A stretch of 44,878 nt of DNA from contig JBDRWW010000011.1 in assembly GCA_039802605.1 (NCBI GenBank), forward strand, positions 1 through 44,878, written 5' to 3'. The stretch is from a candidate division WOR-3 bacterium. GTDB taxonomy: Bacteria > Hydrothermota > Hydrothermia > LBFQ01. Below, in pieces: positions 2,441 to 39,095 of the stretch. The notes beneath the pieces are model-generated. The model ran no database searches. It saw nothing but the letters and a program-made list of their open reading frames with translations, and was not told the DNA's origin. The number at the start of each line of letters is the position of its first letter. The stretch's first letter is position 1. A program made the position numbers and the translations under genes.

Positions 2441-2574
2441 ACTTCATTAGGTGTGATAACCCATTCCTGTAAAGCAACCGCATAAACGCTGTTCCCATAA
2501 GCCTGCCCTTCTAAAACTTCACTCCCAACCAAATTTACCCTCCAAGTGGCAATATACGATATTACCAATACCAT
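2407..2574 (-). pseudogene. 55-aa chimeric ORF: probable N-terminus of an exported protein fused out of frame to the ABC remnant
   Basis: Strong SD AAGGAGGTGA just before ATG 2574; MVLVISYIATWRV...; its last codons overlap the ABC Q-loop in another frame. Confidence 0.5.
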
Positions 2575-2591
2575 ACCTCACCTCCTTTTTA

Positions 2592-2781
2592 TTATCCATC
2601 CTTAAACACGGTAAAATATACCCCCTTGCCTTTTATCCCTTTTACCTCCCTGCCACTTATATCGTATAACTTATACTCCCCACATATGCTTACAACATTC
2701 TCACCTTGAACCCCAGAACGACCCATGCCAACGGGATTACTATACCTTAAACTGTCGGAACTTAGTATTAATAACAAACAT
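2592..2781 (-). pseudogene. Remnant of a secreted protein with a T9SS-like C-terminal tag
   Basis: YKLYDISGREVKGIKGKGVYF; ATG 2781 is one base out of frame with TTG 2777; passenger domain missing. Confidence 0.6.
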
Positions 2782-2792
2782 TTGATTATGCT

Positions 2793-2870
2793 ATTTTAAG
2801 GCTGAACCCTTTTCCCTGTCAAGGAAGTTTTTTACCCATCCAACCGCCGATAAACCAACAACCTTAAAAT
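2793..2870. promoter_or_regulatory. Divergent C-N5-TAnnAT promoter pair
   Basis: Minus: CAGCCT-TAAAAT (2804-2793). Plus: CAACCT-TAAAAT (2859-2870), 8 nt before the gcvPB ATG. Confidence 0.7.
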
Positions 2871-2878
2871 TCCCGGAA

Positions 2879-4312
2879 ATGAAAACAATTTTTGAAAAAC
2901 ACAAGGAGGGATCGTCAAACTACACATTCCCGGAGTTTGAATACGAAGTTGAGATACCCGAAGAATACAAAAGGAAAATCCCTCTTAACCTCGTTGAAGT
3001 TCCGGAAAACGAAGTTGTTAGGCACTATATTAAACTTTCGCAAAAAAATTACGGGGTTGATATAGGCTTTTACCCATTGGGTTCCTGCACGATGAAATAC
3101 AATCCAAAAATAAACGAAGAACTTTCAAGACTTCCCGGCTTTACCCATCTACACCCCCATACACCCGAAAAACTCGCCCAAGGGGCCTTGGAGGTTATGT
3201 ACGAACTCCAAGAGATCTTAAAGGAACTTACGGGTATGGATGCGGCAACGCTTCAACCGAGTGCCGGGGCTCAGGGGGAATTGACGGGAATACTAATAAT
3301 AAAGGCGTATTTGAAGGATAAGGGACAGGGGCACAGGGATGAGGTTTTAATACCCGATTCTGCGCATGGAACAAATCCGGCAACCGCATCTATGGCCGGC
3401 TTTAAGGCAGTTGAAGTGAAATCCGATAAGGACGGTCTTTTATCCGTTGAAGATTTAAAGGGGAAACTTTCGGATAGGACGGTTGGCCTAATGATTACAA
3501 ACCCAAACACCTTGGGGCTTTATGAGAGGAGGATAAGGGAGATATGCGATTTGGTTCATAAGGCGGGGGGGCAGGTTTATATGGATGGTGCAAACTTTAA
3601 TGCCCTAATGGGTTGGATAAAACCGGGGGATACGGGTGTTGATGTCATACACCTAAACCTTCATAAAACTTTTTCCGTTCCCCACGGTGGAGGCGGTCCT
3701 GGGGCTGGTGCCCTTTTGGTTAAGGGGCATTTAAAGGATTACTTACCCGTTCCCGTTGTTGAAAAATCCGAAAACGGATATTATTTCAATTGGGATCTGC
3801 CAAAGAGCATAGGGAAGGTTCATACATTTTACGGGCATTTCTTGGCATTCATAAGGGCTTATGCTTATATACTCTCAATGGGTAGTGAGGGTTTGAGAAA
3901 GGCGGCGGGGGATGCGGTATTAAACGCAAACTATTTAAAACACCTTTTGGAAAAGGACTTTAAGGTTGCATACCCTTCCGTTTGCATGCACGAATTCGTA
4001 ATAACCGCCAAACCAATAAAGGACGAAACGGGCGTTAGGGCTTTGGATATAGCAAAGAGGATTTTGGATTATGGAATGCACGCACCAACGGTATATTTCC
4101 CCTTAATAGTTCCGGAGGCCTTAATGATTGAACCAACGGAAACGGAAACAAAGGAGACCCTTGAAGATTTCGCCAAAATTATGAAAAAAATAAAGGAAGA
4201 GGCGTACAACGATCCCGAAAAGGTTAAAAACGCACCATACAATACACCGGTTAGGAGACTTGACGAGGCTAAGGCCGCAAAAGAATTAAAGGTTTCGTTT
4301 TTTGAAGGATGA
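2879..4312 (+). CDS. gcvPB: Glycine dehydrogenase (decarboxylating) subunit 2
   Basis: YPLGSCTMKYNP, SAHGTNPAT, HLNLHKTF (PLP lysine), PHGGGGPG, IEPTETE. Confidence 0.97.
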   Translation: MKTIFEKHKEGSSNYTFPEFEYEVEIPEEYKRKIPLNLVEVPENEVVRHYIKLSQKNYGVDIGFYPLGSCTMKYNPKINEELSRLPGFTHLHPHTPEKLAQGALEVMYELQEILKELTGMDAATLQPSAGAQGELTGILIIKAYLKDKGQGHRDEVLIPDSAHGTNPATASMAGFKAVEVKSDKDGLLSVEDLKGKLSDRTVGLMITNPNTLGLYERRIREICDLVHKAGGQVYMDGANFNALMGWIKPGDTGVDVIHLNLHKTFSVPHGGGGPGAGALLVKGHLKDYLPVPVVEKSENGYYFNWDLPKSIGKVHTFYGHFLAFIRAYAYILSMGSEGLRKAAGDAVLNANYLKHLLEKDFKVAYPSVCMHEFVITAKPIKDETGVRALDIAKRILDYGMHAPTVYFPLIVPEALMIEPTETETKETLEDFAKIMKKIKEEAYNDPEKVKNAPYNTPVRRLDEAKAAKELKVSFFEG

Positions 4313-4743
4313 AGATAGCCATAGGCTGCGACCATAGGGGTTTTAGGTTAAAGGAGTTTTTAAAGGAAAAGTTATCAAAGGATTACGAGGTTTTGGATTT
4401 TGGAACATTTTCCGAGGAAAGTACCCACTACCCAATATACGCGCATAAGGTTGCGTCGGCGGTTTCGAAAGGTGAGGCGGATTACGGTGTTTTGATATGC
4501 GCAACCGGTATAGGTATGAGCATAGCGGCGAATAAGGTTAAAGGTGTTAGGGCCGCGCATGTTTGTAGCGACGAACTCGTTGAACTTTCAAGGAAACACA
4601 ACGACGCAAATGTTATATGCTTTGGTAGTTTATATACGGATGGAGAAACGGCATTAAGGTGGGTTAAAATCTTTATATCAACCGAATTTGAAGGTGGAAG
4701 GCATTTAGAAAGGGTAAGGATGCTGGAAAATGTTCCCCATTAG
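4309..4743 (+). CDS. rpiB: Ribose-5-phosphate isomerase B
   Basis: GCDHRG, ICATGIG, AANKVKGVRAA, HNDANV, FEGGRH. Confidence 0.95.
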   Translation: MKIAIGCDHRGFRLKEFLKEKLSKDYEVLDFGTFSEESTHYPIYAHKVASAVSKGEADYGVLICATGIGMSIAANKVKGVRAAHVCSDELVELSRKHNDANVICFGSLYTDGETALRWVKIFISTEFEGGRHLERVRMLENVPH

Positions 4744-5371
4744 CGACGACATACCTTCAAAGAGAAAACCCTTTGTAATGTGGATTTTTATAATAATTTG
4801 CGTTATGGTTTTCCTCATACAAACCGAAGGGATAACACAAATGTTTGGGTTTATACCCGTTAAATTTTGGTTTAGGGGTGAATGGATACAAACAATAACA
4901 TACATATTTCTACACGGAAACCTGTTCCACCTTTTGGGTAATATGTACTACCTATACATCTTTGGGGATAACGTTGAGGATAAACTTGGAAGGTTTGGTT
5001 TTGCCCTATTGTTCATACTATCCGGTATAGGAGGGGCTTTATTGCACGGGATATTCTACCCATACTCCCACATACCCCTTGTTGGGGCCTCGGGGGCGAT
5101 TTCCGGAGTCCTTTCGGCCTATATGATAATGTTTCCGACGGCGGGGATATACACATATGTTTTTTGGTATCTCGTTAAAGTACCGGCGATAATCTTCATA
5201 GGGTTTTGGGTGGTTATGAATTACATTTATGCCTTATCCGGCGTAGAGGTTGGGGTTGCGTGGTGGGCCCATATAGGGGGATTTTTAGTGGGGATTCCGT
5301 TTGGGGTCATAGGAAGGTTAAAGATGTTTTTACAGGGGGAAGGAGATGAGGATATACAACTCTTTACTTGA
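4730..5371 (+). CDS. Rhomboid intramembrane serine protease
   Basis: FLHG-FHLLGNM, GASGAISG, AHIGG. Confidence 0.93.
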   Translation: MFPISDDIPSKRKPFVMWIFIIICVMVFLIQTEGITQMFGFIPVKFWFRGEWIQTITYIFLHGNLFHLLGNMYYLYIFGDNVEDKLGRFGFALLFILSGIGGALLHGIFYPYSHIPLVGASGAISGVLSAYMIMFPTAGIYTYVFWYLVKVPAIIFIGFWVVMNYIYALSGVEVGVAWWAHIGGFLVGIPFGVIGRLKMFLQGEGDEDIQLFT

Positions 5372-6311: not shown

Positions 6312-7040
6312 TCACCTGATAAAGTGTTCCAACCCTTTGGACTTTAAAAGGGATATAAGGTTTTGTGTGTTTTTATCCGATGGATAACCGCTAAACTTGG
6401 GTATTTTATCCCCAAAACCCAAAAAACGGTTTAAAGAAAGCATTTCCAACTCCCTGAAATACTTGGCAAACAGGGAAGCGAGTGCCACCTCTTTATACCT
6501 TTTATCCGCCCCCCTTTCAAATCTTAAAATTTTTGCACCCTTTTTATAAATACCCTTTTCCAAAACCTCCCAACCCTTCAAAAACCTCCCGTAATCCCTA
6601 AAACCCCCCGCCAACCCCGCTATAACGGTATTCCCCTTTAACCCATCCGCTATTTTGCAAATTGCCTTTGCATCCTCTACAAACCTGTTCTTCCTCAATT
6701 TAAAGGCCTCCAACCTCATCGGAACCAGGTTTATAACCTCAAATGGGAGTTGTAATATTTTTCCACCGAAAGCCGGAATCTCAACATTTTTAAAAATTTC
6801 ATCGGCTTTTCCGAAAACTTTTAAGAACAGATCGTATGAGTTGTCAAATCTATACCCCATGCGTGCAAAGGAGGATAAAACCAAACTCTCCGCATAAGAA
6901 TAACCCTTTATGTCCCTCCTGAAAACCTCCTTACTCTCCTTTAAACCGCTTAAATCCCCGATCACATCAACCCCGACTACGAACAGGGAACCAATTTTTG
7001 GGCCGAGGCCGGCCTCATCTATTCCCGAAAAAATCATCAT
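6312..7040 (-). CDS. rnhB: Divergent ribonuclease HII family protein
   Basis: GIDEAG-GP--G, ESK, AD--Y-EVALASLFAK--R, SGYPSD; start placed at MMIFSG (7040). Confidence 0.7.
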   Translation of the reverse strand: MMIFSGIDEAGLGPKIGSLFVVGVDVIGDLSGLKESKEVFRRDIKGYSYAESLVLSSFARMGYRFDNSYDLFLKVFGKADEIFKNVEIPAFGGKILQLPFEVINLVPMRLEAFKLRKNRFVEDAKAICKIADGLKGNTVIAGLAGGFRDYGRFLKGWEVLEKGIYKKGAKILRFERGADKRYKEVALASLFAKYFRELEMLSLNRFLGFGDKIPKFSGYPSDKNTQNLISLLKSKGLEHFIR

Positions 7041-7800
7041 ATTTTGGGTCCATATACTTTTCAACCGCTCTGGAATAGTTTTCCAAAAGTTCCCTCCACC
7101 TTTCCCTATTTATAACCTTTGCAAAGGCATAAGAGCCGTAAATCTGGCCGGCATGAAAGGCCACCCCAACGCCAAACGAGGCATAAGCGGGAATATCCCT
7201 CTTCTCCCTAAACTTATAATAAAAACCCAAAACATAAAATGTTCCAACCATAAAGGCACCCATAAGGGCGGTTCCCCTATCCCCAAGCCAGTACCTACCA
7301 AAACCGGGAATTATTGATAAAAAGGCCGCTTTTTTGGGAGATTTTAAGTCGGGGTCGTAAATGTATCTTTCCAAAACCGTCCCCGCAACCACCCTTTTCG
7401 CCTCCTTCCAATCCCCTTCCTGCAACCTCATCCAAGCGACTAAGGATTTCTTTTGAACGGAATTATCCGGCATTTTTGAAAGTTCCTCATAAAATTTAAA
7501 GGTATCCCCCTTATAAAGGTATATCTTCGCCAATTCGTAATGAGCCCAAACCTTTCCCCTTTTGTTTTCCACAATGTGCCTTTTAAAAATCTCCTCCGCA
7601 AAGTCCAATAGATTTGCTAGTTTATAAGAATATCCGGCCATAAAGTGCGCGTAATCAACGGAATCGCTGTTTGGGAAAAGCGTAATAAACCTCAAAAATT
7701 CAAGGGCGGCTTCCCTATATTTCCCTTCCGAATACAATTCCTCCGCAAAGGAAAAAACCTGCTGGGGATATATTTCAACCTGAAATACAAGCCAAATCAT
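7015..7800 (-). CDS. TPR (BamD/YfiO-like) protein with C-terminal membrane segment
   Basis: FAEELYSEGKYREAALEFLRFITLFPNS; KSPKKAAFLSIIPGFG. Start moved to ATG 7800 because the longer ORF overlaps rnpB and a promoter motif lies 8 nt upstream. Confidence 0.8.
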   Translation of the reverse strand: MIWLVFQVEIYPQQVFSFAEELYSEGKYREAALEFLRFITLFPNSDSVDYAHFMAGYSYKLANLLDFAEEIFKRHIVENKRGKVWAHYELAKIYLYKGDTFKFYEELSKMPDNSVQKKSLVAWMRLQEGDWKEAKRVVAGTVLERYIYDPDLKSPKKAAFLSIIPGFGRYWLGDRGTALMGAFMVGTFYVLGFYYKFREKRDIPAYASFGVGVAFHAGQIYGSYAFAKVINRERWRELLENYSRAVEKYMDPKYDDFFGNR

Positions 7801-7808
7801 TGGCGGAA

Positions 7809-7856
7809 ATTCTAATCCCGATTGATGTTCATTATCGGATTTTTCAACTTTATAAT
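7809..7856. promoter_or_regulatory. Divergent promoter pair for the TPR gene and rnpB
   Basis: Minus: CGGGAT-TAGAAT (7820-7809). Plus: CAACTT-TATAAT (7845-7856). Confidence 0.75.
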
Positions 7857-7862
7857 ATAAAC

Positions 7863-8268
7863 TCGGGTGTGTGCCGGCGGTCGCCCCTAATAGGGGAGGA
7901 AAGTCCGGGCTCCAAAGGGCAGGGCGCCGGGTAATACCCGGGGTGGGGCAAAACCCCACACGGTAAGGGCCTCAGAAACAAGACCGCCGAAGGCCCTTTA
8001 AGGGCCAGGCAAGGGTGAAAGGGTGGGGTAAGGGCCCACCGGCTCCGCAGTAATGCGGGGTGAGGGGGTGAAATGCCCCCGGCCGGGTGAGTCCCGGCTC
8101 AGGTAACCGCCCGCCCGGAGCAAGGCCAAGCAGCGCCGCTCCCCGTAATGGGATAAGGTGGCCCGCCGAAATGCGGCGCGGGTAGGCCGCTAAGGAGTCC
8201 GTGGGGTAACCCACGGGCCAAGATAGATGACCGCCGCATACAGAACCCGGCTTATGGCACACACCCGA
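7863..8268 (+). ncRNA. rnpB: RNase P RNA, bacterial type A
   Basis: GAGGAAAGTCCGGGCTC, GGGTGAAAGGGTG-GGTAAG, GGAGCAAGGCCAA, AGATAGATGACC, ACAGAACCCGGCTTA; P1 pairs TCGGGTGTGTGCC with GGCACACACCCGA. Confidence 0.98.
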
Positions 8269-8295
8269 TTTATTTGAAAGCATCGGAAATTTTAT

Positions 8296-8307
8296 CTAAG
8301 TTATAAT
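8296..8307 (+). promoter_or_regulatory. Promoter motif of the yjbQ-like gene
   Basis: CTAAGT-TATAAT, 8 nt before GTG 8316. Confidence 0.7.
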
Positions 8308-8315
8308 ATTCTCTT

Positions 8316-9823: not shown

Positions 9824-11536
9824 TCAACGCCTTATAACCTTTTTGACCTTACCATCTTTTACGATAAAATAAACACCTTTGTTCTCAATTCCCTTTACAA
9901 TTTTACCATCAACCCTATAAACCTTTCCCCCATTTTTCGTTAATTTTGATATTTCCTCATCAACGGATGTTAAGCAAACATTTATCAAAGAGGGTTGCGA
10001 AACCATATACATCATGAAATCACCCGAGTTTATAGCGTTATTTTCATCAACATCAAACCACAAAGCGACCAAAAGGTCATATGTTCCCGCCGGAGTCCCC
10101 GATGGTACAACAAATATTCTACTCCCCGTAGAAGAACCAGAAGGTACGGTTATTTTTCTATCGTTGGGTGGGTCACTGTAATAACTACCGTTATAAAGGG
10201 ATGCCCCTATCATTATCTGGTTATGCGTATCTTCTGCGTAATTCCGAATATTCACATATATGGTGAATGTATCCCCTATGCAAACATTTGTGGGACTCGC
10301 GCTTATGGAGGTTATATACATAGGCGTGGATAACCTATATCCTCCGGGCGAATAGTAATGCTCGTTTATCCACTTCCAAGTATAACCGTTATTCGCCCAC
10401 CTCGATGAACCCCATTGGCACATACCCCTCCCGTGTCCATAACAGGAATGACCCGTGCAAACCGGATCGGATATACAAGGCCAATAAACCCCATCCCCAC
10501 ACCCGCAATCATTGTTTTCGGCCGAATATTCGGATCTCGCTATAGTTCCGGAGTTTTCAAGCATTATGCCCGATGTATATATCGCCGCGTTTACGGTTGA
10601 TGAATAACTATCACTCGGATCCCAAACCTGGCAACAAGCGCTATTGCAAATATCGTAGGAGGAGTTTATGGGGTTTAAAACATGCCAGGCACCATAAGAC
10701 CTATAAGGGATAGCCCCAGCCCTCAGGGAATGAGCATTCCAACTGGCTATCCATTCATCGTCAAGACCGTATTGTACATATGTTTCAAGGGATACTATAC
10801 TTACGGATGAGCAACTCCTGCAACTGCAATTTGTTCCAACCTTTATGGTTGAAGGGGGGATAAGTAGGGGAGCATGCAATTCGTAATCTTCATCGGAAGG
10901 GGTAAAGGATTTTTTTTTAAAATCTTCCGATTGCTTTTCAATATTTATGCCGTGTTCCTTTTTCTTTATTACCCTACCGTTCCCGGGGGACAGTTGGGCG
11001 TTCAATCTTTGAACACCTTCCAATATGAATATACCGGTTTTTTCAAAGGTTGTGTATCCGTTTTTACTGAATATAACCTTGCCTTCTAAGGGTTTTTCAC
11101 CGTTGGAGCCCTTTACCGGAAATTCAACATAGTAATAACCTTTGTTATCGGTTTTCGCGTTATAGGATCCATAAGGGGTATTCACTTGCACGTTTACACC
11201 TTCCAGCGGGGTGCGCGTCTTTTCATCAACAACCCAACCGTACCATATGGCATACCCGTTTTTCGGTTTTGGGGGTTGGGGTATTTCCAAGGGCATAAGC
11301 ATAAAGTTTATATCTTTGGGTGTGGTTTTATCCACATTTAGCGTGGTTTTTAGTTCCCTGTATCCCTTTGCCTCAACGCTTATGCTGTATTTACCCTCTT
11401 TGAGGTCCAAGGTCAAAAACCCGTTTTCCGTGGTTTTATGGACTGTATCGTTTATCTTTACGGTTGCCCTTATCCCATACCCCGTTATAGCATCCGTTAT
11501 GCTGAAATTTATCGTATAAGAAAACAAAACCAACAT
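9824..11536 (-). CDS. Secreted SpoIID/LytB-domain protein with carboxypeptidase-regulatory-like domains and short T9SS-like tag
   Basis: LETYV---L--EW--SW---SL-AGA---RSY; YDIC---CCQV; GHGRGMCQWG; tail VYRVDGKIV...KGVYFIV. Start placed at MLVLFSY (11536). Confidence 0.85.
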   Translation of the reverse strand: MLVLFSYTINFSITDAITGYGIRATVKINDTVHKTTENGFLTLDLKEGKYSISVEAKGYRELKTTLNVDKTTPKDINFMLMPLEIPQPPKPKNGYAIWYGWVVDEKTRTPLEGVNVQVNTPYGSYNAKTDNKGYYYVEFPVKGSNGEKPLEGKVIFSKNGYTTFEKTGIFILEGVQRLNAQLSPGNGRVIKKKEHGINIEKQSEDFKKKSFTPSDEDYELHAPLLIPPSTIKVGTNCSCRSCSSVSIVSLETYVQYGLDDEWIASWNAHSLRAGAIPYRSYGAWHVLNPINSSYDICNSACCQVWDPSDSYSSTVNAAIYTSGIMLENSGTIARSEYSAENNDCGCGDGVYWPCISDPVCTGHSCYGHGRGMCQWGSSRWANNGYTWKWINEHYYSPGGYRLSTPMYITSISASPTNVCIGDTFTIYVNIRNYAEDTHNQIMIGASLYNGSYYSDPPNDRKITVPSGSSTGSRIFVVPSGTPAGTYDLLVALWFDVDENNAINSGDFMMYMVSQPSLINVCLTSVDEEISKLTKNGGKVYRVDGKIVKGIENKGVYFIVKDGKVKKVIRR

Positions 11537-11544
11537 AATCGTAT

Positions 11545-11572
11545 ATTTTAAAGGTGATTTCAACCTTATCAT
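11545..11572. promoter_or_regulatory. Back-to-back promoter pair within 28 bp
   Basis: Minus: CACCTT-TAAAAT (11556-11545). Plus: CAACCT-TATCAT (11561-11572). Confidence 0.7.
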
Positions 11573-11579
11573 ACCCAAA

Positions 11580-12032
11580 ATGATTGAGGGGGTTAAAGTA
11601 AAGGCGTTAAGGGTGATCCCCGACGATAGGGGAAGGCTTGCGGAGATTTTGAGGGTTGATGATGATATATTTGAGGGTTTCGGGCAGGTTTATTATACCA
11701 CCGCCTATCCGGGTGTTGTAAAGGCTTGGCATGCGCACAGATTTCAAACGGATTTCATAACCTGTATTCATGGAATGATAAAACTCGTTTTATACGATGA
11801 TAGGGAAAACAGCCCCACAAAAGGGGAAATAAACGAGTTTTACATAGGAATACATAACCCCATACTCGTAAAAATTCCCCCCCTCGTTTGGCATGGGTTT
11901 AAAAACATCGGCCTTGAAGAGGCAATAGTTATAAACATCATCACAAAACCTTACAACCAAAAAAATCCGGATGAACTTAGAAAACCTGCACATGGAGTTA
12001 TCCCTTACGATTGGAGTAGAAAGGATAGATAG
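11580..12032 (+). CDS. rfbC: dTDP-4-dehydrorhamnose 3,5-epimerase family (cupin)
   Basis: DDRG, PGVVKAWHAH, DDRENSPT, IPPLVWHGF. Confidence 0.88.
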   Translation: MIEGVKVKALRVIPDDRGRLAEILRVDDDIFEGFGQVYYTTAYPGVVKAWHAHRFQTDFITCIHGMIKLVLYDDRENSPTKGEINEFYIGIHNPILVKIPPLVWHGFKNIGLEEAIVINIITKPYNQKNPDELRKPAHGVIPYDWSRKDR

Positions 12033-16222: not shown

Positions 16223-16277
16223 ATTATAAACCCGCAAAGTCTCTATGTCCCCACAAAAACTTTTTCAGCCTTAGAAT
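16223..16277. promoter_or_regulatory. Divergent promoter pair
   Basis: Minus: CGGGTT-TATAAT (16234-16223). Plus: CAGCCT-TAGAAT (16266-16277). Confidence 0.7.
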
Positions 16278-16286
16278 ATTAGCGCT

Positions 16287-16649
16287 ATGCTTTGGCTTAT
16301 AAGTTTTACTTGGATAACTCCGCATTGGCTTAACGATTATATAAAATCCGGGAAGGGAAAGGCCATAATAATAGATGTAAGGACACCCGCGGAACATCAG
16401 ATGGGGTTTATCCCGGGAACCCATATGTTAATACCCCACAATCAGATAGCCGCAAGGATAAATGAAATAAAGGCGGATCCCAATAAGGATACCATAATAG
16501 TTTATTGCAGATCCGGAAACCGCTCCACAATAGCGGCAAGAATCCTTGAATCAAAGGGTTTTAAGTATGTATTAAACCTCAAAGGTGGGATAAACGCTTG
16601 GCAACAAGAAGGTTATAAGGTTGTGAAACCAAAAGGAGGTGAAAGATGA
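16287..16649 (+). CDS. Rhodanese-like protein
   Basis: IIDVR---E---GFIPG, YCRSGNRS, LKGG--AW. Confidence 0.92.
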   Translation: MLWLISFTWITPHWLNDYIKSGKGKAIIIDVRTPAEHQMGFIPGTHMLIPHNQIAARINEIKADPNKDTIIVYCRSGNRSTIAARILESKGFKYVLNLKGGINAWQQEGYKVVKPKGGER

Positions 16650-16849
16650 AAAGGAATGTGGGAACGGTTGATAGGGTTATAAGGGTTATAGTAGGGCTTT
16701 TGGCATTTGGTGGCATATTTTTCGTAAGTACCATCTGGTTAAAGGTTTTACTCGGCATAGTTGGTATAGTTATGCTATTCACGGCGGCCACCGGATTCTG
16801 CGCGCTATACACGCTGTTTGGTATATCAACCTGCCCGGCTAAAAAATAA
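16646..16849 (+). CDS. DUF2892 (YgaP-like) small membrane protein
   Basis: NVG--DR--R, TA--GFC-LY-LFGISTC; SD AAGGAGGT. Confidence 0.9.
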   Translation: MKRNVGTVDRVIRVIVGLLAFGGIFFVSTIWLKVLLGIVGIVMLFTAATGFCALYTLFGISTCPAKK

Positions 16850-17094
16850 CACTTATATCCCTTCTAATATCACCACCAGAAGACAAAATCCAGCATATTG
16901 GGGTTGGTTTTATAGTTTTTGCGGTTTCGTATAACGCCACAAAGGACAAAAGGGCATCCTTAGGTGTTAGTGTAAGCGTAGGTTTATTAAAAGAGGTTTG
17001 GGATAAGGTATCAAAGAGAGGGGATTCGGAAGTTTTAGATTTTGTATATACCGCATTCGGGGGTGTGGTTGGGTACTTGGTGGTCAGCCGTTAA
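16846..17094 (+). CDS. YfiM/DUF2279-like small membrane protein with putative ATA start (absent from the ORF track)
   Basis: 82-aa open frame ITLISLLISPPEDKIQHIGVG...GLLKEVWD...DFVYTAFGG; ATA overlaps the upstream TAA. Confidence 0.75.
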   Translation: MTLISLLISPPEDKIQHIGVGFIVFAVSYNATKDKRASLGVSVSVGLLKEVWDKVSKRGDSEVLDFVYTAFGGVVGYLVVSR

Positions 17095-24978: not shown

Positions 24979-25018
24979 ATTATAATTCCGCCACACAAAG
25001 GCATTTCAACCTTATAAT
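24979..25018. promoter_or_regulatory. Divergent promoter pair
   Basis: Minus: CGGAAT-TATAAT (24990-24979). Plus: CAACCT-TATAAT (25007-25018). Confidence 0.75.
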
Positions 25019-25026: not shown

Positions 25027-25704
25027 GTGATGCTTTTTATCATAGCCTATTCTTTTATATCGGTTGATGAGGTGTATAAAGCTATGGATAAATACACCAT
25101 AGTGGATGTTAGGAGCAGTTATGAGTATAGGGTTGAGCACATAAAGGGGGCTATATCCGCACCAGTAAATGCCATTGAGGCTTATTTTGAAAAGGGCATA
25201 ATACCCTTGGATAAGCCGATAGTTTTTTACTGCGCTTGTCCCCACCACCTATCCGAAATAGCGGCTAGCAAAGCGGAACTTTATGGGGTAAGGGAGGTGT
25301 ACGTTTTAAACGGGGGGTTTTTCGGTTGGAGGGATAAGGGGTATCCAACAGAAGGTTTGAGAAAGGGTGAAAAACCCAATACATTTGTCGCCGCGGGTTA
25401 TGTTAAGAGGAATGGGGATCCGGCTAAATTTACAAGGGTTTGGTTCATACATAAGCGTACGGGTCAAATGGAGGTGGCATACACCACAAACGACGGGTTT
25501 TATAAGTCGGATTGGAATTTCTTTGATATAAAACCCGGGGATACGGTTTTAGTAGCGGTTGATATGCCAAAGGATTTCTCAATTTTGGTTTTGCCCAATA
25601 AAACGGGTAAAGTTTGGGGTAGTAGGGTTGATATTTTTGATGGAAAGGTTGTTAGCATGCCTACAAAATTGATTAAAACATTGGAAGAAAAGGGCTTAAT
25701 GTAA
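25027..25704 (+). CDS. Rhodanese-like protein with C-terminal beta-sandwich domain
   Basis: IVDVR---EY---HIKGA, FYCACPHHLS, GGF-GW---GYP. Confidence 0.85.
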   Translation: MMLFIIAYSFISVDEVYKAMDKYTIVDVRSSYEYRVEHIKGAISAPVNAIEAYFEKGIIPLDKPIVFYCACPHHLSEIAASKAELYGVREVYVLNGGFFGWRDKGYPTEGLRKGEKPNTFVAAGYVKRNGDPAKFTRVWFIHKRTGQMEVAYTTNDGFYKSDWNFFDIKPGDTVLVAVDMPKDFSILVLPNKTGKVWGSRVDIFDGKVVSMPTKLIKTLEEKGLM

Positions 25705-28506: not shown

Positions 28507-28556
28507 TTTAAGGATGTAAATTCCTCCTTGTAAAATGCAAATCGCAACCTTATAAT
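28505..28556. promoter_or_regulatory. Divergent promoter pair
   Basis: Minus: CATCCT-TAAAAT (28516-28505). Plus: CAACCT-TATAAT (28545-28556). Confidence 0.65.
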
Positions 28557-28565: not shown

Positions 28566-29708
28566 ATGTGGATAGTTTCCTATATCTCGGAAATCTGGTT
28601 GGATAATAGGAGCTGTGAGGTTCATAGGGAATACTTTTCGGAAGAGTATGTAATGCCAGCCTCAACTTTGAAATCCCTATGGGCTATTGTACTTTTGAAG
28701 GAATTGGGTGAAAATTACAGAATACCCACGATTTTCGCCATAAAAAAGGATACCCTGTTTATAAGGTTCAACGGGGATCCAACCCTTAGATTCTCAACCC
28801 TTGATTCCGTCTTAAAGGAAAAAATATCTACCTTTGACTTCCAAAGCGTAAAAGTCGTTATATCCTTTCCCAAATGGGGAGAGAGGTATGGATACGGTTG
28901 GGCATGGGAGGACATAGATAAGGGTTATATAACGCCGATAACCCCTATATCCATAAATTACGGTAAGGTATCGGAAGATAGCGCCCTAAGAATATACATT
29001 GGGAATGTTCGTGAAGAAACCTTTACGGATAGTGCGATTTATATTCCGAGGAGCGATTATAGGTATAGGGATCCATTAAAGTTTGTGGAACATATCGTTA
29101 AGAGGGTTGCAAAGGATTTTGGTAAAAAGGTTAAAATTGTGACCTTGGAGGGTGATATGCCGGATTTAAGCGGCTTTGATATGGACACCATATACAGCCC
29201 GACATTGGTTGATATGTTAAGGCCAACGCTGTATTACAGTATAAACTTTATGGCGGATATGCTCGTTGCCCATTATTCAAAGGGTTTATCAAATGCCGGG
29301 GATAAGTTTAAAGAGTTTATGAAAAAACTGGGAATGGATGGCGATGCTTATATTTTTGACGGTACGGGACTTTCAAGGTATAACCTCATAAGGGCTAGGG
29401 ATGCGGCGTTTATAATGTGTGCGGGTTCAAAGGGTTTAAGCGAATACGCGTTAGACATATTCCCTTCCCCCGGCGAGGGAACGCTCAAAAGGAGGTTAGT
29501 GGAACTCGGGGAAAGGGTTTATGCCAAAACGGGAACCCTATTCGGTGTTTCGGCACTATTGGGTTTTTATAGGGGATGTAATGAGGAGTATGTATTTGGA
29601 ATATTCGTTCAAAACTATCCGATAACCGAAAAGGCCAGAGCGGAGATAGACAACCTAGTGCGCACATATGGGGGCATTTTGGATTGCGGGAGGGTTGAGG
29701 CAAAATGA
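28566..29708 (+). CDS. dacB: D-alanyl-D-alanine carboxypeptidase/endopeptidase (peptidase S13)
   Basis: PASTLK (SxxK), GDP-L, GWAWED, SIN (SxN), DGTGLSR-N, AKTGTL; start ATG 28566 or TTG 28563. Confidence 0.9.
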   Translation: MWIVSYISEIWLDNRSCEVHREYFSEEYVMPASTLKSLWAIVLLKELGENYRIPTIFAIKKDTLFIRFNGDPTLRFSTLDSVLKEKISTFDFQSVKVVISFPKWGERYGYGWAWEDIDKGYITPITPISINYGKVSEDSALRIYIGNVREETFTDSAIYIPRSDYRYRDPLKFVEHIVKRVAKDFGKKVKIVTLEGDMPDLSGFDMDTIYSPTLVDMLRPTLYYSINFMADMLVAHYSKGLSNAGDKFKEFMKKLGMDGDAYIFDGTGLSRYNLIRARDAAFIMCAGSKGLSEYALDIFPSPGEGTLKRRLVELGERVYAKTGTLFGVSALLGFYRGCNEEYVFGIFVQNYPITEKARAEIDNLVRTYGGILDCGRVEAK

Positions 29709-30358
29709 TATTTTTATTCGCCTTTTTTGAACCCGAAACCTTGGTTTTTGATGCTAAGTTTGGCCCTTTTAAAGCGGGAAAACTCCAAATGATTAGCTCT
29801 GGTAAAACCATATGGAAGGGGAAGGAGGTATATGAGTTCAAACTTTTGGCAAACGGTGGAGTCCCGTTTTTTAAGATAAACGATACGATTATAAGCATAA
29901 CGGATTTAAACCTAAAACCCCTCTTGTACAAAAAGGTTCAGCACGAGGGAAATTACCACTATTGGGGCTGGATAGCATACGATCACCATAACGGGAAGGC
30001 GTTATACCATTACGGTAAAAGCCTTGATATTCCCGAGGGGAGTTTGGACCCACTAACATTGGTATATGTTGCAAGGACATTAAATTACGATTCCCAAAAG
30101 GTTTACAAGTTCCCTTACCATGTGGATGAGATTACTGAAACCGTTAAGGTAAAGGTTGTAGGTGAGGAGAGGGTTAAGACACCCTTAGGGGAATTTGACT
30201 GTTGGATAGTTATGCCAGAGCTAAAATCCGGCAAAAATATATTCGGTGGAGGAGGTGGAATGAAGGTTTGGATTTCAAAAAATGAGAGGATTCCGGTTAA
30301 GGTTGAGGCTAAAATGATCTTCGGTTCGGCCGTTGGGGTTTTGGTTAGGAGAAGATGA
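29705..30358 (+). CDS. DUF3108 family exported protein
   Basis: E-L-F-AKFG-FKAG, LDPLT--Y--R, E-VKTP-GEF-C, VWIS----IPVK. Confidence 0.8.
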   Translation: MIFLFAFFEPETLVFDAKFGPFKAGKLQMISSGKTIWKGKEVYEFKLLANGGVPFFKINDTIISITDLNLKPLLYKKVQHEGNYHYWGWIAYDHHNGKALYHYGKSLDIPEGSLDPLTLVYVARTLNYDSQKVYKFPYHVDEITETVKVKVVGEERVKTPLGEFDCWIVMPELKSGKNIFGGGGGMKVWISKNERIPVKVEAKMIFGSAVGVLVRRR

Positions 30359-31138: not shown

Positions 31139-31146
31139 ATCAAACT

Positions 31147-32432: not shown

Positions 32433-32440
32433 AACCCGTT

Positions 32441-34213: not shown

Positions 34214-34216
34214 GGG

Positions 34217-35748: not shown

Positions 35749-36313
35749 AGGGTTTTCCAAACCCCAAAGGCTTGTGGGATGTTATGATAAAGACTTTACC
35801 CTTTTTCCGTAAATCTTCTATTATCCTCTCCAAATGGATTTTGGATTTTTCGTCGAGGTGGGCGTAGGGCTCGTCCAATGCTATAACCGGAGCGGGGGAG
35901 GATAGGGCCCTAACCAGTTGAACCTTCCTATTCTGACCCGTTGATATCTCTTTAAATGTTTTATCAAGGACCTCTTTCAATCCAAAAACTTCAATTAAAT
36001 CTGAAGATACGGGTGAAAAGTGTAATTCAAAATACCTTCTAACCGTTATATCCGCCCTTATGGTTTCGCCCAACATCACGGACACGAGTTTTACCCTTTC
36101 CAACGGTGATAATTCCAAAATATCCTTTGACAAGACCCTTATTTCACCCCTTAATATTGATATCCCGAGAAAGGCCTTTAACAGTGTGGTTTTTCCAACC
36201 CCGTTTTCCCCGTAAACGTTTAAAACCTCCCCAAAATCCAATTGAAAACTTATATTACCCAATAAAGGCCTTGCATATCCTATATAGCACTCCTTAGCCT
36301 CCAAAACCTTCAT
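35723..36313 (-). CDS. ABC transporter ATP-binding protein
   Basis: GENGVGKTT, ISTGQ, LDEP, TSH. Confidence 0.9.
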   Translation of the reverse strand: MKVLEAKECYIGYARPLLGNISFQLDFGEVLNVYGENGVGKTTLLKAFLGISILRGEIRVLSKDILELSPLERVKLVSVMLGETIRADITVRRYFELHFSPVSSDLIEVFGLKEVLDKTFKEISTGQNRKVQLVRALSSPAPVIALDEPYAHLDEKSKIHLERIIEDLRKKGKVFIITSHKPLGFGKPFKLPPSSQ

Positions 36314-37433
36314 TTTTACCCATCAATTCCAAGTAATACCCTTCAACCTCTTTTGCGATGTTTTTCCACGAAAACCTTTTTGCGGTTTCAAGGCCGTTTG
36401 ATATTAACCTCTGCCTGAGGTTCTCATCCGTTAAAACCCTTATTATCTTATTGGCCAAATCCACCTCGTTTTCCGGCTCGCTTAATAAACCGTTTTCCCC
36501 ATCCTTTACCACATACCTATAACCCTCGTTATTGGTTGCCACCACCGGAACCCCACTCGCCATAGCCTCCAAAAGAACCATGCCAAAACTCTCGGACCTT
36601 GTTGCCGGGGATACGAATACATCGGCCGAACGGTAATACCTCGGCAATACATCGCTATCAACAGCCCCTTCAAAGAGCACCCTATCTTTTATTTCTTCGG
36701 GTACCAAAGATTTATAATATCCCAAAAGTGGGCCCGAACCCACGACTATTAATCGTGCGTTGGGAACCTTTGAAAGTATTATTGTCATTGCGTTTATTAA
36801 AAACCTCAGCCCTTTTCTGGGTTCCGGCCTCCCTACAAACAAAATATTCTTATAACCCATAAGGTGCTGTAAGGGTTTTTTGTTGGGGTTAAACTTTTCA
36901 ACATCCACACCGTTTGGGATAATCCTGTAATCTATGTTTCCAAAGTGTTTCAAAATGGGTTCTATTGCGGCGGGTGAAACCGCTATAAAACCGTTAATAC
37001 GGGAAAAATAACCCTTTATATAAGGTTTAAAGGTTTTTGCCAAGATGTTTTTGCGATAGGCCGCGTGGAATGTAATTACATTTATTGAATTTGAATATTT
37101 CAAAGCGAGAATTGGTAATGTTGGTGCTACTTGACCGTGTATATGCACTATATCAAATCCGTTATTCCTCAAAATTTCCTTAACATACAGGTTTATCCTC
37201 GGTGAAAATGCCACTGGGGCTATTGAACCGTTTACGGGTATCTTTATCGGAAATCCAACCCTATAAACCCAAGGAGGTTCATCAAATCCCACCTTCTCTT
37301 TAAAATTCGTCGTTAGTATATAGGTTTCCCAGCCCAAATCCCGTAGGTTTTTTGAAAGTTGGTGTATGTGCTCCGAAATCCCACCCGGATATGGATAATA
37401 AACATCGCTTACGAATATAACCCTGCCCTTCAT
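36294..37433 (-). CDS. Glycosyltransferase family 4 (PimA-like)
   Basis: PGGI--H, IP-NGS-A, IIPNGVD, FVGR-EPRKG, ESFG-VLLEAMA. Confidence 0.9.
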   Translation of the reverse strand: MKGRVIFVSDVYYPYPGGISEHIHQLSKNLRDLGWETYILTTNFKEKVGFDEPPWVYRVGFPIKIPVNGSIAPVAFSPRINLYVKEILRNNGFDIVHIHGQVAPTLPILALKYSNSINVITFHAAYRKNILAKTFKPYIKGYFSRINGFIAVSPAAIEPILKHFGNIDYRIIPNGVDVEKFNPNKKPLQHLMGYKNILFVGRPEPRKGLRFLINAMTIILSKVPNARLIVVGSGPLLGYYKSLVPEEIKDRVLFEGAVDSDVLPRYYRSADVFVSPATRSESFGMVLLEAMASGVPVVATNNEGYRYVVKDGENGLLSEPENEVDLANKIIRVLTDENLRQRLISNGLETAKRFSWKNIAKEVEGYYLELMGKNEGFGG

Positions 37434-38503
37434 AACCCCAAATCCCGCCTGATTTGTAAAACCAACCTACCAAACTCCGTATCCCTAAGTTTATCAAATA
37501 TTATAAAGCAGGTTAGCATAAAAAACATGCCGATGGACATAGCGATGAAACTTGCAAGTGTTGGAATCACCCTTTTGGGCCAAACCCTTTTCTCCTTTCC
37601 CAAAGGTTCGGATGCGGGTTGTAGAAAGGGGTTATCCTTCTTTTCCAAAAGTTTGGCCTTTTCATACTCCTCATAAAGGGTTCCATAAACCGTTGAAAGT
37701 ATGGTTAGCCTTACCCTATATTCATAAGCCTTTCTTAAATTCTTTGGGAGGTGTTCAAACTTGGATGAAAGGTTGGACATAAGGGCGTCTATTTCCCTCC
37801 TTACAATTCTAACATCGGGGATGTTTTCGGAAAAAACGGACATAAGGGTTGAGAGTTCCACCTCTTTTTGAACTATTTTTGTTATCAACTCACCTATGGC
37901 CGGTGCCACCATATCTTCGGCAGAGGGTACCAAAATCTTCTCCCTCTCCTCAAAGGCGGTAATACTATCCTGTAATAACTTTATGGAATCTTCTACCTCC
38001 TTTAACCTCTTTTCCAGAAATCTCCTTAACTCCCTACCCTTGGCGTTCAGGGTTAAATTTGCCTTTTCGTTTAAAAAGTCTATGTATTTTTGGGTAAGTT
38101 CCCTTGCCCTATCCTTATCGGTGTCCCTGACACTTAACATAAAGGAACCGCTGGGTAGGGGTTCGAGCTGGAACTTGGAATCCATAATTTGAACGGCATC
38201 GTCTATGTTTTTTGTGCCCAATATCTCCAATAGGTTATACCTTTCAATGAATTCCCTCTTAAAGTTGTAAGATGTTGCTATATCAACGAATATCTGGGCG
38301 GGTGATGACATAGCCCCCCTAGTAAGTTGAAAGAATAAAAGCGTTTGGGGTTGCAATTGTGTTATTTCCTCCAAAGATGGAACTAATATAACACCCCTTT
38401 CATATACGGGCTTAACCAAAAAGGATGATAACAATAATGCCCCGATGGTACCAACAAGCGAAAAGTAAAATATCCAACGAACCCTTTTAAAATACTCAAA
38501 CAT
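37430..38503 (-). CDS. Wzz/GumC-like polysaccharide chain-length determinant
   Basis: N-terminal TM followed by P-Y, coiled coil with SEN-PDV, and WPKR before a C-terminal TM. Confidence 0.8.
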   Translation of the reverse strand: MFEYFKRVRWIFYFSLVGTIGALLLSSFLVKPVYERGVILVPSLEEITQLQPQTLLFFQLTRGAMSSPAQIFVDIATSYNFKREFIERYNLLEILGTKNIDDAVQIMDSKFQLEPLPSGSFMLSVRDTDKDRARELTQKYIDFLNEKANLTLNAKGRELRRFLEKRLKEVEDSIKLLQDSITAFEEREKILVPSAEDMVAPAIGELITKIVQKEVELSTLMSVFSENIPDVRIVRREIDALMSNLSSKFEHLPKNLRKAYEYRVRLTILSTVYGTLYEEYEKAKLLEKKDNPFLQPASEPLGKEKRVWPKRVIPTLASFIAMSIGMFFMLTCFIIFDKLRDTEFGRLVLQIRRDLGL

Positions 38504-38504
38504 T

Positions 38505-39095
38505 CTAAATCTTGAAGTCCTCTTGTGTTAAACCAACATTAACCCTTATATCCCTAAAATTAACCGTTCTTACCTCATTGCCATCGGATGTGTAATCAAC
38601 AACCATAACGGGGAGGAATGTCTCGGAATCTATCCAGTATTTTGAGTATGAGGCTCCATAGTTCTCGGAAGGTTGAAGGGGGACCTTGATTATATAAACC
38701 TTTTTCCCGAAAAGGGTGCCTTCGGATAGAAACTCGGCACTTTTAACCCTCTTTATAAAATACGGTATATGGCTTTCGTATATCCTATGACCCTTTGGTG
38801 ATCTCAACCTGTTATCGTCAGGCGAAAGTGTTACCTTTAAAAATCCCTTCTTCGCCCTAACCTTGCCCGTTTTTGGATTATAAACCGCTATTCCACCTTT
38901 GTTTTCCCCTTCCAAGACCTCCATATAAACCCAACCGTCCATATACTTCTGTGAATACAGTTTGTACTCCGTTTTTCCGTTTTCCTTTGGAACCTTTGAC
39001 TCCATTTTGGCCGTATAATCCTTTATTTTTGTCAGGTTTTCCCTCAAATTCGCGACTATTTCATCGGCGGATATCGATATGAGTATGTAAAGCAT
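38505..39095 (-). CDS. LolA-fold outer-membrane lipoprotein-sorting-like protein
   Basis: ADEI------IKDYTA, YWID-ETFLP, F-DI-VN-GL--EDF. Confidence 0.75.
   Translation of the reverse strand: MLYILISISADEIVANLRENLTKIKDYTAKMESKVPKENGKTEYKLYSQKYMDGWVYMEVLEGENKGGIAVYNPKTGKVRAKKGFLKVTLSPDDNRLRSPKGHRIYESHIPYFIKRVKSAEFLSEGTLFGKKVYIIKVPLQPSENYGASYSKYWIDSETFLPVMVVDYTSDGNEVRTVNFRDIRVNVGLTQEDFKI

Follow-up and report, generated by a model that had tools for sequence, protein, structure and literature searches.

Predicted exported proteins of a hot-spring WOR-3 bacterium mostly start with approximately 7–10 uncharged hydrophobic residues

Genes with short hydrophobic leaders in the window

The window, a stretch of 44,878 nucleotides, is one entire contig of the 1.65 Mb genome of a hot-spring bacterium, the BamA of which is 78% identical to that of Ca. 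Caldipriscus (WOR-3). Seven full-length genes in the window encode proteins with short hydrophobic starts, and both the positions and the families given for them in the original prediction are correct (Table 1). Two remnants that were described together with them are also present. In contrast, the start (M)TLISLLIS at 16846 could not be confirmed as that of a gene, as its frame opens with ATA and offers no ATG, GTG, or TTG. The N-termini, which we call micro leaders, consist of Met and approximately six hydrophobic residues and contain neither Lys nor Arg; small residues come next, and after them often Gln or Pro. The predicted promoter motif 7–11 nt upstream of six of the genes matches the distances measured from the end of the TAnAAT box to the ATG. 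In-frame stops are located 2–8 codons upstream of the DUF3108, LolA-like, and both rhodanese genes.

The LolA-like protein has 17 public homologues with identities of 58–98%, of which 13 are full-length. All 13 retain an uncharged leader of 7–10 residues with small residues at positions −3 and −1. The remaining 4 of the 17 are annotated as starting downstream of the leader, which means that gene callers already remove it. The AF2 model of the LolA-like protein has a mean pLDDT of 92.9; however, residues 1–5 score below 50, and the fold begins at residue 10. In the Peptidase_S13 orthologue from the same bacterial family, which is 55% identical, the N-terminus is likewise a brief hydrophobic stretch without charge, and more distant members of the phylum have lipoprotein or Lys/Arg-type signals. 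The DUF3108 gene, the start of which overlaps the DacB stop, encodes a protein with a Pfam match from residue 15. Among 30 orthologues from the phylum, those of families f1, f3, f4, f15, f18, f23, and f27 have uncharged leaders of 8–14 residues, and those of family f8 have canonical signals.

The SpoIID protein reaches its first domain within approximately eight residues, and the in-frame ATG located upstream at 11572 is not preceded by a box. The open frame upstream of the TPR/YfiO-like gene enters the RNase P RNA gene and contains no start codon within 40 codons. An RNA-library contig spanning 25045–25356 provides weak evidence for the second rhodanese gene; RNA contigs are unable to show RNA ends, and two raw-read RNA runs yielded no reads. 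Rhodanese and TPR proteins do not necessarily have to be exported. The end of the SBBP-repeat protein at the contig end resembles, by eye only, a T9SS C-terminal domain.

Table 1. Positions of genes and frames with short hydrophobic starts, and of the SBBP-repeat gene, in the window
Feature	Position	Strand	N-terminus and product	Upstream elements	Box end to ATG (nt)
LolA_like gene	38505..39095	−	leader = residues 1–9 (codons 39069–39095)	TAAAAT box 39103–39108; in-frame stop 8 codons upstream	7
Peptidase_S13 (PBP4/DacB-type) gene	28566..29708	+	5–8-residue hydrophobic start	TATAAT box 28551–28556	9
DUF3108 gene	29705..30358	+	8-residue hydrophobic leader	in-frame stop 2 codons upstream	
SpoIID + CarboxypepD_reg gene	9824..11536	−	micro leader	TAAAAT box 11545–11550	8
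TPR/YfiO-like gene	7015..7800	−	micro leader, then Gln	TAGAAT box 7809–7814	8
Rhodanese gene (first)	16287..16649	+	micro leader	TAGAAT box 16272–16277; in-frame stop 4 codons upstream	9
Rhodanese-domain gene (second)	25030..25704	+	micro leader	TATAAT box 25013–25018; in-frame stop 3–4 codons upstream	11
61-codon remnant	2592..2777	−	micro leader; tail like end of T9SS C-terminal domain, by eye; 61 aa		
55-codon remnant	2407..2574	−	micro-leader start; 55 aa	Shine-Dalgarno-like AAGGAGGTGA, not −10 box	
82-codon frame	16846..17094	+	first codon ATA	overlaps stop of preceding gene	
SBBP-repeat protein, C-terminal part	44446..44877	−	N-terminus past contig end; Pfam match SBBP alone		

Distribution, anatomy, and start sites of micro leaders

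Genes, their starts, and the signal classes were assigned by one crude custom pipeline, in which the micro class is defined by the absence of Lys, Arg, Asp, and Glu from positions 2–6. The class contains 217 of 1582 ORFs. In a relative with canonical signals that served as a control, it contains 23 of 295; judged by eye, most of these 23 look cytoplasmic, and all of them lack Trp at position 3. By the automatic rule, 11 of 18 mapped proteins with a T9SS C-terminal domain (PF18962) belong to the micro class, compared with 206 of the 1564 remaining ORFs (Fisher p = 3e-6). Inspection by eye placed 15 of 19 T9SS cargo proteins in the micro class and two in the canonical class, and left two unclear. 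A Pfam scan with manual sorting covered 97 class members (153 in the loci examined, 217 in all) and divided them into 37 envelope or secreted, 9 cytoplasmic, and 2 membrane proteins, and 49 without an informative family. The envelope and secreted members include SprA, BamA, a second Omp85, TonB-type receptors, SurA, two OEP, OmpA, a PD40 protein, Amidase_3, SLT, M23, and five S8 proteins, among others.

Predicted exported proteins of this organism thus mostly start with approximately 7–10 uncharged hydrophobic residues, and not with an 18–30-residue signal peptide. The leaders mark exported proteins throughout the genome, from T9SS cargo and SprA to BamA, SurA, TolC-like proteins, and TonB-type receptors, and occur in approximately 100 proteins, far more than the original prediction had listed. 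Its claim that cytoplasmic proteins lack such starts holds in most cases only, as 9 of the 97 scanned members are enzymes of the cytoplasm whose first strand is hydrophobic. Micro and canonical leaders form two signal populations within one genome. Nearly all lipoproteins have longer, canonical signals that contain Lys or Arg, with Cys at a median position of 16. A lipobox-like motif is present in 5 of 217 micro and 51 of 247 canonical class members, and the micro class does not have the character of SPII signals.

Leu, Ile, Val, Phe, and Met make up 52–84% of the residues at positions 2–7 of micro leaders and approximately 30% beyond. The hydrophobic enrichment is restricted to positions 2–7, whereas it covers positions 4–15 in canonical signals of the same genome, which suggests that the leader is too short for a canonical h-region. 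The hydrophobic run most commonly ends at position 5–6. The leader has approximately 7–10 residues, rather than the predicted length of about six. Uncharged hydrophobic starts extend past 14 residues in only 16 of 233 cases. The lack of a charged n-region is borne out by a combined Lys and Arg content of at most 3% through position 8, and there is no Tat twin-arginine motif, since the leaders are without Arg and Lys by class definition. Small residues (Ala, Ser, Gly, Thr, Cys) account for 31–38% of positions 6–9, compared with 18–23% in other proteins. Small residues at −3 and −1, as in a c-region, are indicated by this statistical evidence and by the 13 full-length LolA-like homologues, with no mapped site.

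Gln is found in 8% and 7% of micro leaders at positions 8 and 9, respectively, compared with 1.75% overall, and Pro in 7–11% at positions 10–12. An early Gln without a prior charge occurs in 29 of 118 box-supported micro proteins. The Gln signal is modest. A fairer control failed, in that Gln is also present in 10 of the 40 "other" proteins that start without charge; these ten are probably missed micro leaders. Trp occupies position 3 in 22 of 118 micro proteins, compared with 13 of 405. The canonical signals of this genome also have Trp after Lys or Arg, and they often end directly before Gln. In three micro proteins, the first residue of the CarbopepD_reg_2 domain is number 9, 10, or 12, compared with 29 in a canonical paralogue.

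A TAnAAT box is located 5–11 nt before the start candidate in 646 of 1599 ORFs, compared with 73 of 6821 (1.1%) internal ATGs. Because this −10 box is so close to the start codon, the mRNAs are probably leaderless or nearly so, which would fix the N-terminus. An in-frame stop is present 0–10 codons upstream in 69 of the 118 box-supported micro genes, so these N-termini cannot be extended, and the majority of the remainder have no upstream start codon. This supports the original argument against longer N-termini that had been missed. Where genes for cytoplasmic proteins have this box at this distance, the encoded proteins begin with polar residues. Comparison with homologues showed that the leaders are conserved in relatives in the LolA-like, BamA, and DUF3108 families. 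Orthologues from the phylum have uncharged leaders of 8–14 residues in many families, and the pattern is conserved at the protein level despite the divergence of the DNA in BamA and LolA-like genes.

Export machinery and proposed function of the leaders

The genome encodes one copy each of SecY, SecA, LepB (S26 peptidase), and YidC, the last without a long basic tail. No matches to PF02978, RF00169, or RF01854 were found in this genome. The sole PF00448 match (20.8 bits) was rejected as an SRP GTPase and is, by reading, a RadA-like protein. Three phylum-wide searches yielded no Ffh, FtsY, or SRP RNA for the class, which was represented by 15 genomes; in controls, the two protein families were found in 14 of 14 well-known genomes and RF00169 in 12 of 14. 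The organism seems to lack the SRP targeting system. It is missing from all sampled genomes of whole families and of one class, and these genomes are from free-living diderm organisms, have sizes of 1.4–3.3 Mb, and encode full envelope machinery. SRP loss does not track with leader type across families. Both the SRP pathway and a three-part signal peptide that opens with a positively charged n-region are regarded as near-universal.

The earlier interpretation, that the leaders imply altered Sec and SRP recognition, is partly supported. The leaders are a genome-wide mark of exported families, and the failure to find Ffh, FtsY, and SRP RNA would represent an alteration of unexpected form, but SecY looks conventional in one alignment. 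No compensating change is seen in that alignment, in which the pore-ring position, presumably equivalent to Ile-408 of E. coli, is Ile.

With regard to the export route, cleavage, and topology, we infer that the micro leaders are probably genuine signal peptides of minimal size that serve the general SecYEG/SecA route. As SRP seems to be missing, targeting could not use it and would presumably be driven by SecA, aided by signals within the mature domains. Six hydrophobic residues cannot span a bilayer and are, to our knowledge, fewer than in any h-region functional in E. coli. The short leader may sit in the lateral gate or outer leaflet, which it would be free to do because no Lys or Arg holds the N-terminus at the cytoplasmic face. 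LepB may well cleave the micro leaders, and the single enzyme would probably cut at the lateral gate or outer leaflet. The hydrophobic core, often with Trp at position 3, is followed by a zone of 3–4 residues rich in Ser, Ala, Gly, and Thr, and the mature protein would start at approximately residue 8–11, often with Gln or near Pro. Lipoproteins may keep their longer Lys/Arg signals because Lgt and LspA depend on a signal that stays firmly anchored.

That the micro leaders are left on the proteins is conceivable but doubtful. Tags of this kind would engage SecA and SecY but, being uncharged and too short for anchoring, would pass through, possibly with the N-terminus leading, and be retained by the mature protein. 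We consider such uncleaved tags improbable, although a hydrophobic run of approximately six residues has no charge for anchoring, anchored lipoproteins keep longer Lys/Arg signals with most of the lipobox-like motifs, and the DUF3108 leader is nearer to the conserved fold than the cleavage site of canonical homologues. The zone of small residues at positions 6–9, the subsequent Gln or Pro, and the small residues that LolA-like proteins conserve at −3 and −1 resemble a signal-peptidase site; LepB is present, and the leader in the LolA-like model is disordered and outside the fold. It is also unlikely that SecA or an unknown factor reads an uncharged tag of 7–10 residues, which would then use a way into the translocon that has been described for no bacterium. 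Such a tag would not span the membrane and would, for example, enter N-terminus first or be positioned in the outer leaflet only. Caldipriscus-class WOR-3 bacteria would then have rebuilt envelope targeting with no SRP and a tag on most non-lipoprotein exports, and this would constitute a new mode of protein export.

The existence of a separate, undescribed targeting or translocation route that recognises a Met-hydrophobic-Trp start, with the leaders not being Sec signals, is very unlikely. No candidate machinery was identified for it, TonB-type receptor paralogues use either signal, with the first domain at residue 9–12 or 29, and Trp after Lys or Arg in canonical signals fits one continuum. 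This outweighs the stereotyped start with its Trp at position 3, the similar starts in other families of the phylum, the missing SRP, and the discreteness of the two signal populations, all of which would suit a separate route. An artefact, in which the proteins carry no signal and either the true starts are elsewhere or the hydrophobic codons merely reflect which nucleotides are preferred at the 5′ ends of leaderless mRNAs, is hardly credible. The starts were picked by a custom rule, a few class members such as g1136 (in-frame Met-Lys-Arg start three codons upstream) and the rhomboid gene at 4805 (earlier start) are mis-started, and nine cytoplasmic enzymes share the hydrophobic first strand, but the upstream stops, the polar starts encoded by cytoplasmic genes that have an identically spaced box, the enrichment in T9SS cargo, the conservation of protein while DNA diverges, and the micro leader of BamA, a normally essential protein, all speak against it.

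Comparison with known export systems

In this natural, free-living diderm lineage, the whole of outer-membrane and secretion biology seems to depend on signals only half as long as the accepted minimum, in the absence of SRP; the literature searched contained no description of such micro leaders. The minimum signal that Sec needs, and the replacement of SRP, thereby become a testable question. Signal-peptide predictors probably miss these leaders, and estimates of WOR-3 secretomes, protein localisation, and completeness are therefore likely biased. Very short export tags from a thermophile could possibly be used in protein engineering.

Bacterial Sec/SPI signal peptides are composed of n-, h-, and c-regions, with a total length of approximately 18–30 residues and an h-region of approximately 7–15. 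Micro leaders are similar to them in their N-terminal location on periplasmic, outer-membrane, and secreted families, in the hydrophobic core followed by a small-residue zone, in the folded domain directly after the leader, and in the presence of SecYEG, SecA, and LepB. They differ in lacking the Lys/Arg n-region, in their total length of approximately 7–10 residues, and in a core of approximately six residues, compared with approximately 12 in canonical signals of the same genome. Export in E. coli tolerates the loss of n-region charge if the core is very hydrophobic, and prlA and prlG translocons export proteins with defective signals. However, the laboratory cores have approximately 8–10 or more residues, whereas the natural proteome here uses approximately six, and the SecY pore-ring position that was compared is unchanged.

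Like Bacteroidetes, which follow the Q-rule, the organism has a T9SS, and an excess of Gln occurs immediately behind its canonical as well as its micro leaders. At 7–8% Gln per position, the enrichment is far weaker than in Bacteroidetes, for which a mean Q-value of 71% is reported; the rule is also reported not to be valid for the entire FCB group (PMC5837995, PMC10653852). Furthermore, no clear glutaminyl cyclase was found here, with no matches to the plant-type PF05096 and two ambiguous matches to PF04389 (M28).

The −10-type box directly upstream of the start codon in approximately 40% of genes, as judged from the DNA, is reminiscent of Deinococcus deserti, in which 60% of mRNAs are leaderless; in the available portion of that report, leaderless mRNAs are not tied to short signals (PMC4007540). 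Viability without SRP is shared with laboratory suppressors of E. coli, which indicate that life without SRP is possible (PMC7844537, PMC8299109). There it was obtained in the laboratory, whereas here it appears in a natural free-living lineage.

Micro-leader genes of the window and their start sites

The original prediction held that predicted exported proteins of the window begin with a micro leader, that is, with Met and then a few hydrophobic residues. Seven full-length genes with such a start are present at the predicted coordinates, and Pfam matches confirm their families: SpoIID with CarboxypepD_reg, Peptidase_S13 (DacB), DUF3108, LolA_like, a weak YfiO/TPR and two rhodaneses. Two proposed remnants were found as frames of 61 and 55 codons, and a further example at 16846, the frame of which begins with ATA, could not be confirmed as a gene start and was dropped. 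The promoter motif reported 7–11 nt upstream of six genes is a -10-like TAnAAT box, the end of which lies 7–11 nt from the ATG in six of the seven full-length genes. The DUF3108 gene has no box; its start codon and the stop of the preceding gene overlap. In the DUF3108, LolA-like, and both rhodanese genes an in-frame stop is located 2–8 codons 5′ of the start.

Features of the window with their coordinates
Feature	Position	Strand	Remark
Shine-Dalgarno-like sequence	2575-2600	-	before the 55-codon remnant (2574)
Frame of 61 codons	2592-2777	-	micro leader; tail resembles the end of a T9SS C-terminal domain by eye
Rhomboid-type membrane protein gene (our reading)	4730-5371	+	TATAAT box before internal ATG 4805
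TPR/YfiO-like gene	7800		micro leader
RNase P RNA, bacterial class A	7865-8270	+	211.6 bits
SpoIID-like gene	11536		micro leader
Interval between SpoIID-like and cupin/epimerase-like genes	11536-11580		divergent genes
TAnAAT box	16272-16277
Rhodanese-1	16287-16649		micro leader
Rhodanese-2	25030-25704		micro leader
TAnAAT box	28551-28556
Peptidase_S13 (DacB)	28566		micro leader
DUF3108 gene	29705		micro leader
LolA-like gene	39095		micro leader
TAnAAT box	39103-39108

The 61-codon frame may be a cargo gene of the type 9 secretion system (T9SS) with an internal deletion, or a mini-cargo. The long "open frame" upstream of the TPR/YfiO-like gene exists because the RNase P RNA gene occupies the region, immediately 5′ of the TPR/YfiO-like gene and antisense to it. 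The box within the rhomboid-type gene is probably either a chance occurrence or an internal start; a start there would drop the first transmembrane segment.

Two observations concern initiation. The start of the 55-codon remnant is preceded by a strong Shine-Dalgarno-like sequence, AAGGAGGTGA, and the organism thus seems to employ Shine-Dalgarno-led and leaderless initiation alike. The start codons of the divergent SpoIID-like and cupin/epimerase-like genes are 44 bp apart, so that two leaderless-type promoters would have to stand back to back.

Gene calling in the whole genome, G000, with a simple codon-usage score produced 1599 open reading frames (ORFs). In 646 of them a TAnAAT box ends 5–11 nt upstream of a candidate ATG, GTG, or TTG start, and 73 of 6821 internal in-frame ATGs are preceded by a box in the same way. 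The spacing has its mode at 8 nt, and the promoter consensus, tttttCa.CcTTAtAAT, lacks a -35 hexamer. The box position fits leaderless or nearly leaderless mRNAs, and the promoter layout implies that the mRNAs would be mostly leaderless. Leaderless mRNAs on a comparable scale are reported for Deinococcus deserti (PMC4007540); the figure for G000 is drawn from promoter sequence. Two raw-read metatranscriptome runs yielded 0 reads on the 20 kb searched. Contigs of two RNA libraries partly overlap five genes (rhodanese-2, rho, DacB, DUF3108, and the LolA-like gene), but such contigs may hold DNA and cannot reveal 5′ ends.

Leader anatomy and the proteins that carry it

Proteins were assigned to the micro class if positions 2–6 are uncharged, the mean hydropathy of residues 2–7 is at least 1.5, and the hydrophobic run is over by residue 14. 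The class comprises 217 of 1582 classified ORFs. Box-supported genes with 60 residues or more number 638, of which 118 are micro and 108 carry Lys or Arg ahead of a long hydrophobic stretch. Uncharged hydrophobic starts have a run-end mode at residue 5–6, and the run extends past residue 14 in just 16 of 233. The residue profile by position, calculated from the 118 box-supported micro genes, gives the micro leader the layout of a miniature signal peptide without an n-region. An in-frame stop lies at most 10 codons upstream in 69 of these 118 genes, and most of the others have no upstream start codon. A few members of the class are mis-starts, such as g1136, which has an in-frame Met-Lys-Arg start three codons upstream, and the rhomboid gene at 4805.

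Residue frequencies at the start of box-supported micro genes
Residues and positions	Micro genes	Comparison
Leu, Ile, Val, Phe, Met at 2-7	81, 58, 80, 84, 61, 52%, then about 30%	canonical signals: at least 50% over positions 4-15
Trp at 3	22/118	other genes: 13/405
Small residues at 6-9	31-38%	other genes: 18-23%
Gln at 8 and 9	8% and 7%	proteome: 1.75%; second control confounded
Pro at 10-12	7-11%	other genes: 3-4%

The tie to export was assessed independently of the N-terminus using the C-terminal sorting domain of T9SS cargo (PF18962), of which the genome contains 19. The automatic micro class includes 11 of the 18 cargo proteins mapped at once; the corresponding figure for all other ORFs is 206 of 1564 (Fisher p = 3e-6). 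A micro leader is likewise present in the nineteenth cargo protein. By eye, 15 of the 19 have an uncharged hydrophobic start, two are canonical, and two unclear.

A Pfam scan covered 97 of the 153 micro-class proteins in the loci examined (217 in total), the remaining 56 being small. Manual sorting gave 37 envelope or secreted proteins, nine cytoplasmic, two membrane proteins, and 49 uninformative, 22 of which match no family. The envelope and secreted group includes SprA, BamA with five POTRA domains, a second Omp85, TonB-type receptors, SurA, two OEP/TolC-like proteins, OmpA, a PD40 protein, Amidase_3, SLT, M23, five subtilases, M14, Wza-like proteins, NosD, and cytochrome c, among others. 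The claim that cytoplasmic proteins do not start in this way holds for the recognised cytoplasmic genes of the window (in our reading, among others, glycine dehydrogenase, UvrB, a helicase, Rho, and succinate dehydrogenase), which have polar starts, yet in which the box is common. It does not hold for the nine cytoplasmic enzymes of the scan, where the pattern is mimicked by the first beta-strand.

The folded domain begins shortly after the leader. In three micro proteins with an N-terminal CarbopepD_reg_2 domain, this domain starts at residue 9, 10, or 12, whereas a paralogue carrying a canonical signal has it from residue 29. The AlphaFold2 model of the LolA-like protein, calculated from an 18-row alignment, has a mean pLDDT of 92.9, with residues 1–5 below 50, and its first element is a helix from residue 10.

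The canonical class (n = 247) includes membrane proteins, 51 lipobox proteins, and, by eye, about 30 non-lipoprotein signals, many of which stop right before Gln. Signals of lipoproteins are short as well, their Cys standing at a median position of 16 (range 13–28), and keep Lys or Arg. Only five micro-class proteins contain a lipobox-like motif. The genome has four candidate "micro-lipoproteins" (g0144, g0450, g0972, and g1491) with Cys at positions 8–11. By a rough count, micro leaders serve about three quarters of the non-lipoprotein exported proteins, and Lys- or Arg-containing signals are retained in lipoproteins.

Export machinery and leaders across the phylum

The G000 genome (1.65 Mb in 23 contigs, 41% G+C) is rated 90% complete, and the window is one entire contig of it, C11. 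Its BamA is 78% identical to those of Candidatus Caldipriscus sp. T1.2 and a second Caldipriscus metagenome-assembled genome (MAG); with the BamA of a further MAG, identity reaches 93%. These values place G000 in the WOR-3/Caldipriscota group. A cultured member of this phylum is reported to have both inner and outer membranes (PMC12285271).

G000 encodes one SecY, one SecA, one S26 signal peptidase (LepB), and one YidC. SecY aligns end to end with the Aquifex and E. coli proteins of solved structure. The compensating, prl-like change anticipated in SecY was not seen at the single pore-ring position examined, where the residue is unchanged. Streptococcus mutans YidC2 is the reference for a long basic C-terminal tail, which is absent from the YidC of G000. 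The search for a glutaminyl cyclase yielded no match to PF05096 and two ambiguous matches to PF04389.

Searches of G000 for the signal recognition particle (SRP) found no match to the Ffh M domain (PF02978) or to SRP RNA (RF00169 and RF01854), and the sole match to the SRP GTPase (PF00448), at 20.8 bits, is in a protein taken as RadA. In well-known control genomes, the two protein families were positive in 14 of 14 and RF00169 in 12 of 14. The M domain, the SRP-type GTPase (Ffh/FtsY), and the RNA all gave no match in the 15 sampled genomes of the class of G000, which are 90–100% complete, two of them assembled in 3 and 4 contigs; the SRP pathway thus appears to be missing there. In the phylum sample (81 genomes including G000), the three markers co-occur. 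Families f7, f19, f20, f22, and f28 likewise lack all three. In f13, f17, and f21 neither the M domain nor the RNA is present, and each genome has one weaker GTPase match (about 1e-40); together with the class, these families account for 31 of the 81 genomes. Apart from these, four genomes lack only the M-domain match and one only the RNA match, which we read as assembly gaps. In a BamA tree, the class forms a single SRP-less clade, and f19 and f21 are nested among SRP-bearing families, which suggests that SRP was lost at least three times in the phylum. The tree is a quick gene tree, in which the row of genome G073 is on a very long branch, perhaps from a wrongly chosen frame.

Leaders of relatives were compared in several proteins. 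The LolA-like protein has 17 public homologues with 58–98% identity, aligned over the full protein. The 13 full-length homologues have an uncharged leader of 7–10 residues, which varies in sequence although positions -3 and -1 remain small. The other four gene calls (P0015–P0018) start 3′ of the micro leader, and current annotations of the lineage thus already lose the signal. DUF3108 and BamA matches were found in 62 and 81 genomes of the sample, respectively, and 30 loci were examined for each. Uncharged leaders of 8–14 residues occur in f1, f3, f4, f9, f15, f18, f23, and f27, the f4 BamA copies having one Lys. Canonical signals occur in BamA of f8, f11, f16, and f21 and in DUF3108 of f8 and f25; the f19 BamA start appears canonical, with some uncertainty. 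Caldipriscus BamA has a leader of six residues followed by Gln. In 400 kb of a control f8 genome, 23 of 295 ORFs are micro, mostly cytoplasmic-looking by eye and none with Trp at position 3, and the box precedes only 6% of ORFs. In 400 kb of a same-class f2 genome, the micro class takes in 36 of 354 ORFs, and many of them have uncharged leaders of 10–14 residues. A comparison with 400 kb of genome G002 and the same length of G006 yielded too few orthologue pairs to be informative. These surveys indicate that the trait is widespread across the phylum and most extreme in the family of G000.

SRP loss as the simple cause of micro leaders was rejected, since short uncharged leaders occur in the SRP-bearing families f9, f15, f18, f23, and f27, and BamA is canonical in the SRP-less f21. 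Judged from these sequences, leader type is unpredictable from SRP status.

Proposed export route and comparison with known signals

The sequence pattern, its tie to exported families, its conservation, and the gene content are observations, from which a route can be proposed. The micro leader would engage SecA and the SecY lateral gate in an SRP-free manner. Without a charge, its N-terminus would be unfixed at the cytoplasmic face and could rest in the gate or the outer leaflet. LepB would then cleave the leader C-terminally of the small-residue zone; alternatively, the leader may remain attached to the protein. Under the proposed Sec-dependent route, lipoproteins would retain anchored signals because Lgt and LspA work on a precursor embedded in the membrane.

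The main texts searched, which included few subscription journals, contain no account of short signals without an n-region or of natural SRP loss in free-living bacteria, and those on WOR-3 and Caldipriscus mention neither micro leaders nor SRP absence. Micro leaders are predicted to act like Sec/SPI signals. However, the n-region, a defining feature of those signals, is absent from micro leaders, and the length of their h-region is borderline, which sets them apart from ordinary Sec/SPI members.
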